Origin: Candidatus Sabulitectum sp.
Lineage (GTDB): Bacteria; Fermentibacterota; Fermentibacteria; Fermentibacterales; JCC-6
DNA length: 24,087 nt
Assembly (NCBI GenBank): GCA_023136985.1
Contig: JAGLQD010000216.1
Coordinates: 1-24,087 of the forward strand
Direction: 5' to 3'
The notes beneath the pieces were generated by a model. That model ran no database searches. It was not told the DNA's origin and saw nothing but the letters and a program-made list of their open reading frames with translations. Within the stretch, counting starts at the first letter, position 1. Every line of letters begins with the position of its first letter. Positions 1-3,120 of this stretch are shown here, one piece after another. The translations under genes and the position numbers were made by a program.

Positions 1-263
1 TCGTCCATTACTATTGCGTCAACAGGGCACTGACCGATGCATATCTGGCAGCTGATACACCCCTCCGGAACCACATAGTAGGACTCTATTACTTCAGCGC
101 TTTCAGGGAAGATACCGTCCTCTGGATCAATGGTCTTAACCACTGCTCCCTTTGCCTGGATCTCCAACGCGACAAACTCCAGATCAAATGATTCCCAGGT
201 GAAGTTGAAAACACCTGCTGCTGCGGTAAGAGCAAACACCAGGATCATAGTTATGCTTTTCAA
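1..263 (-). CDS. Secreted 4Fe-4S ferredoxin-like protein, 3' end beyond window start (absent from ORF track)
   Basis: Manual translation from TTG at 263, with GGAG SD upstream: MKSITMILVFALTAAAGVFNFTWESFDLEFVALEIQAKGAVVKTIDPEDGIFPESAEVIESYYVVPEGCISCQICIGQCPVDAIVMD. Has a Sec-like signal peptide and a CxxCxxCxxxCP motif, and is open to position 1. Confidence 0.85.
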   Translation of the reverse strand, partial: MKSITMILVFALTAAAGVFNFTWESFDLEFVALEIQAKGAVVKTIDPEDGIFPESAEVIESYYVVPEGCISCQICIGQCPVDAIVMD

Positions 264-294
264 TGAAAGCTCCTTTCTCTATACAAATGACCTG

Positions 295-1248
295 TTAAGG
301 TCTTAACGGCTGGTCTGTTACCCAATCTGCCCGCACAACACGCCTTTTCATGGATCGCATGCCTGTGTAAGCATGTGAATCGGGGTTGATCATTTCGTGG
401 TAGTTCCAGCATTCGAACATACACTGCCCGCAGCTGATACACTCATCGTAGTCTATGTAAATCATATTAGTAACAGGGCCTATAGACATGGTGTCCTGCC
501 ACACAGCATCAACAGGGCAGCCGAAACCGCAGAACACATCGGTGCCATCAGCATAGTCTGTAATAATGTAGCAGGCGGATTCATCCCCGGCTGTACAGAG
601 CCCGCAGTTGTTGATGGTGGTAGGGTTGAAGGTATAGTGGTTGTTGTAGTAGATAAGTCTCCAGGCGTCCGCGGAAACAGCAATATCAGCAGAGGGGTTT
701 CCTTCGCTGAAGAAAGCCCTTATGCCGAAGAAGTAGTTCTTTGCATATCTGGTTCCGGTAATAGCGTCTACAGGGCAGACATCCATACACTGACCACAAG
801 CGGTGCATAGGTCATAATCTATAACTGCAATTCCCCCCTGGACTACAATAGCATCCATTGGGCAGACCTGCTCACAGAGTCCGCAGCCGATACAGGGTTC
901 TTCCTGAACCTCTACACGGACGAACACATAGGCTGTGTCCGCAGGAGCCTGGACTGTTGTCATTACAGTGGCCTGATTCCAGTTCTCTGTTGTTATCGGT
1001 GATTCTGAGGCACGGATCTCGTAGTATTGAGCATTGTCGACTTCTGTCCAGCGTAATGTGAACGAAGAGAATTCACCTGTCATGTATCCCCATATGGGAT
1101 CTACCGCACCAGCAGTATCGCCGGAGTCAACAAGAAGAGCGCCGGCACTCACAGCAGTTGGCATAACAGGGTTTTCACTTTCACTGAGGCAGGCAGCTAT
1201 AGATGCAAGAGCTACAACTGCCATTAGAGAAAGAATATGCTTTTTCAC
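295..1248 (-). CDS. Lipoprotein polyferredoxin: FN3-like domain with inserted 2[4Fe-4S] ferredoxin plus C-terminal Cys-rich ferredoxin-like domain
   Basis: GTG start with GGAGGT SD. Lipobox IAAC (C20). CIGCGLCEQVCP and CTACGQCMDVCP. Nine more Cys in the C-terminal part (CGLC..C..CGFGCP, CISCGQCMFEC). FN3-like strands FTLRW..YYEIRAS and YFFGIRAF. Confidence 0.85.
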   Translation of the reverse strand: MKKHILSLMAVVALASIAACLSESENPVMPTAVSAGALLVDSGDTAGAVDPIWGYMTGEFSSFTLRWTEVDNAQYYEIRASESPITTENWNQATVMTTVQAPADTAYVFVRVEVQEEPCIGCGLCEQVCPMDAIVVQGGIAVIDYDLCTACGQCMDVCPVDAITGTRYAKNYFFGIRAFFSEGNPSADIAVSADAWRLIYYNNHYTFNPTTINNCGLCTAGDESACYIITDYADGTDVFCGFGCPVDAVWQDTMSIGPVTNMIYIDYDECISCGQCMFECWNYHEMINPDSHAYTGMRSMKRRVVRADWVTDQPLRP

Positions 1249-1449
1249 TTATTTGACCTCCATACTATTACGGATACTCCGCGGTTCAATTTATGACTTT
1301 CCATTCAATGTACATCCAACAGTCTACTATTGTTCCTTTTCTGAAAAGAAGCAAGCGTTTCTGGAAACACTAAATCAATCGGGTTTGGAACTGACTACCG
1401 GTTCGCTATGTTCACCGTGTGATGGTATCCTTCAACCAGGGGGCACATT

Positions 1450-2418
1450 ATCAACAGATACATTCGATACATCTTTCTGCTTCTTTCTGTCTCAGCCAGG
1501 ATTTCTGCGGAGGCTCTCATATTGTATACCTCGGATGGAGGTGCTAGTTGGGTCAGAGAAGAAAGCAGTACAGTATCGAACCTCAATGCTGTCGCGATTA
1601 GTCTTACTACAGGTATAGCGATCTCGGTAGGTGATAACGGAACAATTCTACGCAGAGGAGAGAACGGAACCTGGGCTGATGTTTCTCCCGGAGGATTCAC
1701 CGCTGATCTGTACTCGGTTGCTGTGGGGATTTCCGGTATGATGGCTTGTGGCGAAGGCGGAATTCTTCTTTCATCATTCGACGGAGGTAGCAACTGGACA
1801 GCACTGTCAGATTTTGGTCATGAGGACACAGATCTCTACAGTGTAAATTTTGATCCTACTCATTCAAACTCTTTTCTGATCACAGGAGATAACGGCTTCA
1901 TCTATTCTTCCAGGGATAGACTGGTGCAAACCGGTTCTAGCACAGATTTTGTTACTTCCTGTGGAATGCTGTGCAGCGGGTTTCCCGAGGTGGTTCTGGG
2001 AAGAAACGGGTCAGGGTATAACATCAGGAATGAAGTCATGTTTGATATTGGAGATGTTGTTATCAGAGGAGCCACTGAAATAGTCTCCGGTGGAAGCAGC
2101 TACATTGCCGTTGGAGAGAGTGGATCTATTTTTCGATATTCAGACAGTGAGGTCTGGGATAGTATTCCCTCTATTACAGGGGAAAACCTGAACGATGTCT
2201 CTTATCTTGCCTGGGGCATGACTGCCTGTGCAGTAGGGGATAACGGAATTGTACTGATCTCTGAAGACAACGGCCTTACCTGGGAAATATCTAACATGGG
2301 AATCTCTAGAAACTTGAATGCAGTAGCCGGGAATGGTGCATGGATAGCCTGCATTGTGGGCAGCAGTGTCATGTCAGGTATGGTGAACTTCTTTACAACC
2401 AGTGAGGTTTCAGACTGA
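1450..2418 (+). CDS. YCF48/BNR (Asp-box) repeat beta-propeller protein, probably secreted; start uncertain (track gives TTG 1522)
   Basis: Asp-box repeats YTSDGGASW, SSFDGGSNW, SEDNGLTW and repeated 'LxxVa..g...avGdnG.il' blades. The frame stays open upstream of 1522 through a signal-peptide-like stretch back to an SD-preceded ATC at 1450. Confidence 0.8.
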   Translation: MNRYIRYIFLLLSVSARISAEALILYTSDGGASWVREESSTVSNLNAVAISLTTGIAISVGDNGTILRRGENGTWADVSPGGFTADLYSVAVGISGMMACGEGGILLSSFDGGSNWTALSDFGHEDTDLYSVNFDPTHSNSFLITGDNGFIYSSRDRLVQTGSSTDFVTSCGMLCSGFPEVVLGRNGSGYNIRNEVMFDIGDVVIRGATEIVSGGSSYIAVGESGSIFRYSDSEVWDSIPSITGENLNDVSYLAWGMTACAVGDNGIVLISEDNGLTWEISNMGISRNLNAVAGNGAWIACIVGSSVMSGMVNFFTTSEVSD

Positions 2419-3120
2419 ATGGACCTCAACATTATTTACAGCAGACTGTTCGCTTTTTTTGGACCCAGGGGCTGGTGGCCGGGAGAGTCATCCTATGAGC
2501 ATTTCATTGGCTGCATTCTTGCTCAGAACACCAGATGGGATCGGGTTGTTCCTGTTATTGAGAAGATGAAGCAGAGGGATGTTCTTTCTCCTGAAAAATA
2601 TCTTCAACTGGATTCAGATGATCTGGCAGAAATCTTGAAGGGCTCAGGCACCTACAGAATAAAGGCAGAGTATCTTCAAATTGCAGGCAGCTATATGCTT
2701 TCACTGGGCTGGGACGGCACTCCGGAATCGGTAACAATGGAAACAGAATTACTGAGAGGTCAGCTTCTTAGGCTTAAGGGAATAGGCCCGGAAACATGTG
2801 ACTGCATTCTTCTGTATGTGCTTGAAAGACCGGTTTTTGTTGTGGATGCTTACACCAGAAGAATTCTTAGCAGACATGGATTGTGCGGTACGAAAACAAA
2901 ATACATGGAAATACAGGAGTTGTTTCATGGTGTACTCTCTCCGGATGTGGAGATGTTCAAAGAGTATCATGCTCTTCTTGTTGAATGTGCAAAACGATTC
3001 TGTAAATCGAAACCCTTGTGTACTGATTGTCCTCTGTTTGAAGGAAATGGAGAAGTAGAGATAGAGCACCTGTTCACAGCTGAGGGTTTGAGGCTCCAGT
3101 TCGTTTATGTGCCAGAGTAA
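2419..3120 (+). CDS. Endonuclease III-related HhH-GPD DNA glycosylase; C-terminus replaced by cupin-derived sequence
   Basis: GWWPGES, ILAQNTRW, HhH motif LLRLKGIGPETCDCILLY, VVDAYTRR, and a partial Fe-S loop CKSKPLCTDCP. Confidence 0.88.
   Translation: MDLNIIYSRLFAFFGPRGWWPGESSYEHFIGCILAQNTRWDRVVPVIEKMKQRDVLSPEKYLQLDSDDLAEILKGSGTYRIKAEYLQIAGSYMLSLGWDGTPESVTMETELLRGQLLRLKGIGPETCDCILLYVLERPVFVVDAYTRRILSRHGLCGTKTKYMEIQELFHGVLSPDVEMFKEYHALLVECAKRFCKSKPLCTDCPLFEGNGEVEIEHLFTAEGLRLQFVYVPE

Follow-up and report, generated by a model that had tools for sequence, protein, structure and literature searches.

A phylum-restricted operon of Fermentibacterota encodes ferredoxins with predicted Sec and lipoprotein signals together with a putative outer-membrane barrel

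The stretch of DNA analyzed here (the window, 24,087 nucleotides from Candidatus Sabulitectum sp.) is the entire contig C131 of a metagenome-assembled genome (MAG), which consists of 657 contigs and has a completeness of 79%. The sequencing run that contains all sampled words, and that probably is the source of the assembly, is labeled cold seep metagenome; no RNA run was listed among the matching ones. At its left end two neighboring genes, A and B, encode ferredoxin-like proteins with signal peptides and form the beginning of a six-gene operon, in which four ferredoxins (A to D) are followed by a beta-barrel protein and a DsbD-like membrane protein. Judged from the genomes compared, this operon is a near-universal trait of the phylum Fermentibacterota and is restricted to it. 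We interpret it as a cytochrome-free chain of iron-sulfur (Fe-S) proteins, which would be exported by Sec and the lipoprotein signal peptidase Lsp, would lead to the outer membrane and would receive its clusters outside the cytoplasm. All elements of this interpretation are predicted, and a probability of roughly 0.5 was assigned to it as a whole. Its parts differ in likelihood: export of the ferredoxins via Sec and Lsp is very probable, cluster binding outside the cytoplasm is somewhat probable, and that the chain reaches or crosses the outer membrane is slightly doubtful.

An earlier reading of the window, made from the sequence without database searches (hereafter the sequence-only reading), had described two adjacent genes of the same orientation, a lipoprotein with 17 further Cys residues in up to four cluster motifs and a second protein with a Sec-like signal and at least one CxxCxxCxxxCP motif. 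Both open reading frames (ORFs) are indeed located there on the minus strand (Table 1), and the description of their products was borne out. Gene A encodes a total of 18 Cys residues, which are Cys20 of the lipobox and 17 more, and 16 of the latter form four sets (C119/122/125/129, C148/151/154/158, C215/218/226/244 and C270/273/276/280). Cys20 and the 16 putative ligands are invariant in 47/47 aligned homologs with identities down to 42%, and likewise in 33/33 orthologs that were re-derived from the loci; the 17th residue, C240, is not conserved. The fragment of gene B combines a hydrophobic signal-type N-terminus with one CxxCxxCxxxCP motif, and its full-length orthologs (138–164 aa) have two of these motifs, eight conserved Cys, a Sec-type N-terminus and no RR. 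Both motifs of the gene B orthologs and those of ferredoxin module 1 of gene A are canonical, and module 2 of gene A represents a variant. Fer4-type families of Pfam matched gene A (E 2e-19) and the gene B fragment (E 3e-5), with Fer4_8 and Fer4_15 stretches at 263–303 in the gene A product. The best NCBIfam matches were models of the RnfB, FwdF and PorD type, which covered the ferredoxin modules only and stayed far below the cut-offs. About 49 full-length homologs of gene A (counted as clusters) were found, all of them from Fermentibacterota and named Candidatus Sabulitectum and Fermentibacterales. Proteins C and D carry eight invariant Cys each. In three families of the phylum the ligand Cys of A to D (16+8+8+8) show no or almost no variation, and these 40 residues, arranged in four sets in A and two sets each in B, C and D, are therefore sufficient for ten [4Fe-4S] clusters.

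According to the textbook rule, Fe-S proteins with an extracytoplasmic function receive their clusters inside the cell and are then exported in the folded state by the twin-arginine translocation (Tat) system. The signals of the four ferredoxins do not resemble Tat signals. Each spans only some 20 residues, in which a positively charged n-region precedes a very hydrophobic core. The N-terminus of gene A, MKKHILSLMAVVALASIAAC, comprises an n-region with KK, a hydrophobic core of 13 residues and the lipobox I-A-A-C. Its lipobox Cys is present in 33/33 orthologs, 30 of which fit the strict pattern [LVI][ASTVI][GAS]C, and the net charge of the n-region ranges from +1 to +4 among the orthologs. The 82-aa ferredoxin D carries a lipobox Cys in 33/33 orthologs as well, and B, C and the barrel protein have AxA-type signal peptides. 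For gene B a Sec type-I signal was found throughout the phylum, and the signals on which the sequence-only reading was built are thus conserved. The absence of a twin-arginine motif, also claimed there, holds for both genes of the window, in which no RR was found. Among the orthologs RR occurs in 2/33 of A, 0/34 of B, 1/33 of C and 0/33 of D, and both cases in A belong to a doubtful upstream TTG start which sister genomes do not have. KK pairs abolish Tat targeting in the systems studied. The window genome encodes TatC and TatA and, on contig C343, the signal peptidase LspA (Peptidase_A8, E 3e-35). Other proteins of this genome carry N-termini of the SRRxΦΦ type, for example at C151:2978, and the signals of A to D therefore differ from the canonical local Tat signal. 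These N-termini were collected with a crude regular expression, which gave few canonical RR signals and no full substrate list, and the Pfam annotation of the respective proteins was uninformative.

Directly after the lipidated Cys, gene A encodes an acidic stretch, C-x-[K/S]-E-x-E. The surface-export signal of Bacteroidetes lipoproteins is C-x-K-(D/E)2 (Lauber et al., PMC5080379). The partial resemblance of the two is only suggestive, and we regard it as a hint of surface exposure, not as a test.

The operon continues beyond the left edge of the window, as had been supposed. Gene B is truncated by the contig end after 87 codons, and the operon resumes on contig C72 of the same assembly, where gene D starts at position 8 (C72:8). 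The complete order is A (lipo-ferredoxin, 317 aa), B (ferredoxin, 143 aa), C (ferredoxin, 77 aa), D (lipo-ferredoxin, 82 aa), a barrel protein of 400 aa with signal peptide and, as the sixth gene, a DsbD_2 protein of 378 aa. A 95%-identical relative (L002) and a 61%-identical one (L004) share this gene order, as do about 30 further loci, which belong to Sabulitectum, Fermentibacteraceae and Aegiribacteria. The reading frames of B/C, C/D and D/barrel overlap by 1–17 nt. In a scan for gene A with one genome per species 34 loci were detected, all of them in MAGs of Fermentibacterota (Sabulitectum, Fermentibacteraceae, Aegiribacteria and Hyd24-12), and the barrel is present in 58/61 genomes of the phylum and in all of the 14 genera sampled. 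All of the checks suggested with the sequence-only reading that are accessible to computation, the taxonomic distribution among them, were favorable to it. That reading had further named a porin and a quinone-reactive membrane subunit as genes to look for beyond the left edge; a predicted outer-membrane barrel and two Cys-rich membrane proteins were found. The operon contains neither rnf genes nor a gene for a catalytic subunit. In most loci the DsbD-like gene is followed by a gene for a cytoplasmic protein similar to HpcH/citrate lyase, which was rejected as a part of the system, as its product is cytoplasmic and the gene is missing from Fermentibacter-type loci. Farther downstream a secreted protein of the type IX secretion system (T9SS) type is encoded and, on the opposite strand, a NapH/NosR-like membrane protein matching Fer4_5.

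Structure modeling allowed a closer description of gene A and of the barrel. The AlphaFold2 (AF2) model of gene A (mean predicted local distance difference test, pLDDT, 80.6; predicted template modeling score, pTM, 0.79) is that of a fibronectin type III (FN3) sandwich with a 2[4Fe-4S] ferredoxin module and a second, putative one inserted in its loops. Residues 111–166 superimpose on the 2[4Fe-4S] ferredoxins 7np8_A, 1dur_A and 9bt4_H with Z scores of 9.6–11.3, a root mean square deviation (rmsd) of 0.9–1.4 Å and identities of 38–43%. Residues 37–200 without the insert match many FN3 domains (Z 7.5–8.3, rmsd 2.1–3.0 Å, 81–93 residues), and residues 108–307, which comprise both modules, match the polyferredoxins FwdF (5t5i_F, Z 10.1) and RnfB (9eri_B, Z 9.6). 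A shape search of the Atlas with this model returned only generic ferredoxin and hydrogenase entries with template modeling (TM) scores of 0.37 or less. Bacterial FN3 domains are typically extracytoplasmic. The model of the 400-aa barrel protein (pLDDT 83.9) consists of a signal helix and 20 beta strands; its loops are short, and a plug domain is missing. Its top Foldseek match in the PDB was MtrB of the Mtr complex (6r2q_B, rank 1), followed by TonB-receptor barrels with similar E-values. Among 1.84 billion representatives no relatives outside the barrel's own family were found, only 22 clusters of the same family.

Two membrane proteins encoded in or close to the operon are rich in conserved Cys. 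The DsbD-like protein matches Pfam DsbD_2 with an E-value of 1.9e-25 and has invariant Cys at positions 19, 23, 101, 104, 128, 363, 369 and 372 (23 sequences). C19 and C23 are part of CLASCGP in transmembrane helix 1, C128 is part of CPAF in helix 4, and C101-x2-C104 lies in a K/R-rich loop that is predicted to be cytoplasmic. An acidic C-terminal domain of 175 aa contains the pattern C-x15-C-x5-C-x2-C, which is composed of C363, C369 and C372 and of C347, present in about 90% of the sequences. It is predicted to be periplasmic because the charged loops alternate. This domain had no match in a sequence search of the PDB and no usable match in the Atlas feature search. The gene of the NapH-like protein is conserved in the vicinity of the operon in most loci. 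Its product starts with a signal peptide, and five acidic repeats of the form CPL-x(8)-C-x(6)-C-x(11)-C (20 Cys) are predicted to lie outside the membrane. The repeats are followed by five predicted transmembrane helices, and CX3CP motifs are located in K/R-rich loops with a predicted cytoplasmic position. It matches Pfam Fer4_5; matches to the NosR and NapH models of NCBIfam were far below the cut-offs.

Further support for ferredoxins exported by Sec in this lineage came from a genome-wide scan for ferredoxin motifs, which yielded a fifth family outside the operon. Its member in the window genome, encoded on contig C232 (Table 1), combines a short signal-type N-terminus with a 2[4Fe-4S] module, whose eight Cys are invariant in 24 homologs. 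In 19/24 members of the family the C-terminal domain (about 65 aa) was recognized as a T9SS sorting domain by Por_Secre_tail with a best E-value of 5.5e-9, and the copy of the window genome reaches 20.3 bits, which is below the cut-off. A homolog of SprA is encoded on contig C265 of the same genome, and the genes surrounding the C232 ferredoxin are housekeeping genes only. Sec and T9SS together appear to deliver this ferredoxin to the cell surface. T9SS cargo passes the inner membrane by Sec, and the T9SS-tagged ferredoxin is thus an independent sign of Sec-exported ferredoxins in the lineage.

Genes for cytochrome c maturation (Cytochrom_C_asm) were detected in 0/61 genomes of the phylum, 46 of which are of high quality, and none of the operon genes encodes a CxxCH protein. 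The sole CxxCH-rich ORF of the assembly (L052:369-773, minus strand) lies on contig C530 (1573 bp) and encodes a cytochrome c3-like, tetrahaem-like protein of 134 aa with a signal peptide and four CxxCH motifs; because the contig is very short, it possibly is a binning contaminant. The quinone pool of these bacteria could not be judged from Pfam UbiA, which matches 61/61 genomes of the phylum but also 14/14 controls and is therefore uninformative.

On this basis the following course of events is proposed. The apoproteins A to D would cross the inner membrane in the unfolded state via Sec, and A and D would then be lipidated and cleaved by Lsp. Clusters would be inserted in an anoxic and probably sulfidic periplasm, where the DsbD-like protein would prevent oxidation of the thiols, in the same way as apocytochromes c are kept reduced by CcdA/DsbD. 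The NapH/NosR-like protein is the likely site of electron entry in the inner membrane; the small ferredoxins would relay the electrons over the periplasm, the barrel would house or dock one of them, and the FN3-ferredoxin lipoprotein A would be the outermost redox module. The chain as a whole may serve as a low-potential electron outlet for haem-less fermenters, with sulfur, Fe(III) or a syntrophic cell as possible acceptors, for example. That cluster assembly outside the cytoplasm is aided by the DsbD-like reductant, and that the ten-cluster chain together with the barrel represents the first haem-free outer-membrane wire and an electron outlet of the whole phylum, is put forward tentatively and is rather doubtful in this complete form. 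The more general view of the sequence-only reading, an extracytoplasmic Fe-S relay, is supported, and metal or redox sensing, which it offered as an alternative function, may also apply.

The proposed system follows the operon logic of the porin-cytochrome conduits (MtrCAB of Shewanella, 6R2Q; PioAB/MtoAB; Pcc/Ext of Geobacter), which consist of a redox lipoprotein, one or more periplasmic redox proteins and a barrel. The order of lipoprotein, small redox proteins and barrel mirrors mtrCAB, with gene A in the position of MtrC. Here, too, the barrel is large and plug-less, MtrB/PioB is its nearest fold in both libraries, and a role in electron passage is proposed. In contrast to these conduits, the cofactor would be [4Fe-4S] instead of c-type haem, the barrel comprises 20 strands in about 380 residues compared with 26 strands in MtrB, and the redox centers would be distributed among four small proteins. 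Extracytoplasmic relays with 2[4Fe-4S] modules of the same fold are also known from the Tat-exported subunits NapG, NrfC, HybA and TtrB and from DmsB, PsrB and PhsB, which are exported by hitch-hiking. These subunits have a twin-arginine signal or a Tat partner and serve a catalytic subunit, whereas the proteins described here have Sec or lipoprotein signals of their own and no catalytic partner. The proposed biogenesis is similar in logic to cytochrome c maturation with CcdA/DsbD, since in both cases the apoprotein would be exported by Sec, its Cys kept reduced and the cofactor added outside; the DsbD-like protein differs from CcdA/DsbD by the additional cytoplasmic CxxC loop and the 175-aa C-terminal Cys4 domain, and the cofactor would be Fe-S. 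NapH, NosR and MauN share the Fer4_5 match and the CX3CP loops with the NapH-like neighbor, which differs in that it has no domain for flavin mononucleotide (FMN) binding and no C-terminal ferredoxin, and instead possesses a signal peptide and five Cys4 repeats. RnfB and FwdF finally contain tandem 2[4Fe-4S] modules and scored best when the whole chain of gene A was compared with known structures, and RnfB also has a hydrophobic N-terminal segment. Both proteins face the cytoplasm, however. RnfB has PF04060, which does not match gene A, and it is without the lipobox that gene A encodes in addition to its FN3 scaffold. The charge distribution of gene A indicates an N-in orientation, in contrast to the N-out anchor of RnfB.

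In the literature searched, from which subscription journals were mostly excluded, no description of this cluster or of Sec-exported, secreted or extracytoplasmically assembled ferredoxins was found. The nearest precedent is the surface proteome of Desulfotomaculum reducens with two 4Fe-4S proteins, one of which has an ambiguous predicted topology (PMC4137172).

Several findings weigh against the chain as proposed. Every step, from export and lipidation to cluster content and electron transfer, is a prediction. An extracytoplasmic Fe-S assembly machinery is not known, and the Fe-S scaffold which the sequence-only reading had also named as a gene to look for was not recognizable in the operon, where a DsbD/CcdA-family protein takes its place. 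A cytoplasmic electron-input enzyme is not encoded in the operon either, and the NapH-like protein is devoid of the usual cytoplasmic ferredoxin domain at its C-terminus. TatC was detected in 60/61 genomes of the phylum, and Tat would be the expected route; the n-region of protein C often has KK or RK where Tat signals carry RR, with RR itself in one ortholog. Module 2 of gene A was poorly modeled (pLDDT <50 at 206–236). With regard to the barrel, the likeness to MtrB is one of size and shape at the level of the modeled fold and not of homology. In the ESM Atlas the top cluster was MtrB/PioB with a TM score of 0.74, and plugged TonB-receptor clusters reached 0.73; no Pfam family including MtrB_PioB (PF11854) matched at E-values up to 0.05, and a sequence search against solved structures gave no match. 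Finally, the genome papers on Fermentibacterota describe obligate fermenters without respiratory chain and leave the cluster unmentioned (PMC5030696, PMC5763382).

A first alternative is that the ferredoxins are exported and carry clusters and that the chain ends in the periplasm. The barrel would then be a channel for soluble or colloidal substrates, for example sulfur, polysulfide, an organic oxidant or a metal chelate, and the ferredoxins would reduce the substrate there or act as a redox or iron sensor. Barrels of similar size also function as transporters, the scores of TonB-receptor barrels are nearly those of MtrB, there is no sign of a ferredoxin inside the barrel, and the operon has no catalytic subunit. 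In addition, members of the phylum have been suggested to reduce sulfur (PMC5030696). A plug-less 20-strand barrel of about 380 residues with short loops would, however, leave a very wide open pore in the outer membrane unless it is filled by a partner, and the overlapping frames of D/barrel and of B/C/D are usual for subunits of one complex. The acidic stretch of gene A, which partly resembles the surface-export signal and is only suggestive, points in the same direction. We consider a purely periplasmic chain unlikely.

A second alternative retains export by Sec and assumes that the Cys residues form disulfides or bind another metal, so that the proteins would be relics of ferredoxins and the DsbD-like protein would serve disulfide isomerization. 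A protein of a thiol-disulfide family within the operon, the extracytoplasmic Cys4 repeats of the NapH-like neighbor and the lack of a known route for extracytoplasmic cluster assembly would fit this assumption. Relic domains normally lose their ligand pattern. Here the 40 ligand Cys together with the CP and DAI residues are kept, in the case of gene A down to 37% identity, the model displays the geometry of a cluster-binding ferredoxin, and the bacteria are strict anaerobes. DsbA and DsbB models of Pfam had no match in the window genome, which is a weak argument at 79% completeness. We consider this alternative quite unlikely.

It is very unlikely that the clusters are loaded in the cytoplasm and the folded proteins exported by Tat by means of non-canonical signals without RR, in which case no new route of biogenesis would be required. 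The wide distribution of TatC, the small number of canonical RR signals in the crude scan and the paired basic residues of protein C, including its one RR ortholog, are in line with such an export. The very hydrophobic signals of about 20 residues are typical of Sec, however, KK would abolish Tat targeting, and paired basic residues are missing from most orthologs of B and D. Furthermore, the SRRxΦΦ N-termini of the same genome look canonical, and the T9SS-tagged ferredoxins imply Sec. Finally, although RnfB-type models are among the best full-length matches of sequence and structure and ferredoxins are normally cytoplasmic, uncleaved N-terminal anchors that would keep ordinary ferredoxin domains at the inner side of the membrane as in RnfB, and thus no export at all, are extremely unlikely in view of the positive n-regions and acidic early mature regions (N-in/C-out, the opposite of RnfB), the invariant lipobox Cys in two of the four proteins, the FN3 domain and missing PF04060 of gene A, and the translational coupling of D to an outer-membrane barrel with signal peptide.

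Should the exported ferredoxins hold clusters as proposed, Fe-S assembly would have to take place in the periplasm by a route that nobody has described. The rule of cluster loading prior to Tat export is at stake here, as four families of ferredoxins have retained signals of the Sec or lipoprotein type in a phylum that possesses Tat, and a fifth family has a T9SS tag. All outer-membrane electron conduits known to us are built from multihaem cytochromes, and this rule, too, is at stake with a phylum in which no cytochrome c maturation genes were found and which keeps an operon of barrel and redox proteins. If the proposed function of the operon is correct, abundant organisms of digesters, seeps and sediments which are now regarded as plain fermenters could dump electrons on external acceptors or partners, with consequences for the modeling of syntrophy, of the cycling of sulfur and iron and of bioelectrochemical systems. 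In that case the small lipo-ferredoxins would provide compact building blocks for engineering extracellular electron transfer.

Table 1. Features of the operon and of related genes. Positions without prefix refer to the window, positions with prefix to other contigs of the same assembly.
Feature	Position	Strand	Remarks
Gene A	295..1248	-	317-aa lipoprotein polyferredoxin, operon gene 1; GTG start 1246-1248, TAA stop 295-297
Type II signal peptide, gene A	1189..1248	-	residues 1-20; lipobox I-A-A-C, Cys20 at 1189-1191 (predicted)
FN3-like beta-sandwich part 1, gene A	919..1158	-	residues ~31-110; AF2 model
Ferredoxin module 1, gene A	745..918	-	residues 111-168; two CxxCxxCxxxCP, inserted in FN3
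FN3-like sandwich part 2, gene A	637..744	-	residues 169-204; three strands, pLDDT >90
Ferredoxin module 2, gene A	361..636	-	residues 205-296; Cx2Cx7C...CP + Cx2Cx2Cx3C, variable insert
A/B spacer	264..294	-	31 nt; contains Shine-Dalgarno AAGGAG of gene B at 270-275
Gene B	3..263	-	first 87 of 143 aa, 2[4Fe-4S] ferredoxin with signal peptide; TTG start 261-263; first CxxCxxCxxxCP at 25-59
Gene B signal peptide	~204-263	-	first CxxCxxCxxxCP at 25-59
Divergent intergenic region 5' of gene A	1249..1521	.	Shine-Dalgarno GGAGG at 1257-1261
Barrel gene	C72:256-1455		window assembly
DsbD-like gene	C72:1543-2679	+	window assembly
NapH/NosR-like Fer4_5 membrane protein	C72:6588-8339	-	near operon in most loci
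T9SS-tagged ferredoxin	C232:7856-8332	+	158 aa; genome-wide ferredoxin-motif scan

The start codons of both genes in the window are preceded by Shine-Dalgarno sequences, with the GTG of gene A located 8 nt past GGAGG and the TTG of gene B 6 nt past AAGGAG. The TTG start of gene B is supported because several orthologs have ATG at the same position. The operon promoter presumably lies in the divergent intergenic region, in which no consensus sigma-70 site was found. A weak hairpin of 5 bp with a T-rich run is located at 289-302 on the minus strand, where it covers part of the end of gene A including the stop codon. This hairpin might reduce read-through into gene B or be a chance match.

Divergently from gene A, the window encodes a beta-propeller protein of the BNR/Ycf48 type (1522-2418, plus strand), whose gene is directly abutted by one for an HhH-GPD DNA glycosylase (2419-3120, plus strand). 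This pair adjoins the operon in loci of the Sabulitectum type and not in those of Fermentibacter or Aegiribacteria. In one MAG of the Sabulitectum type gene A is duplicated in tandem, and both full copies are 58–75% identical to the reference. In Ca. Sabulitectum silens JCC-6 the full gene is preceded by additional, fragmentary copies. These observations refer to L016:10001-12226 and L034:8889-10966.

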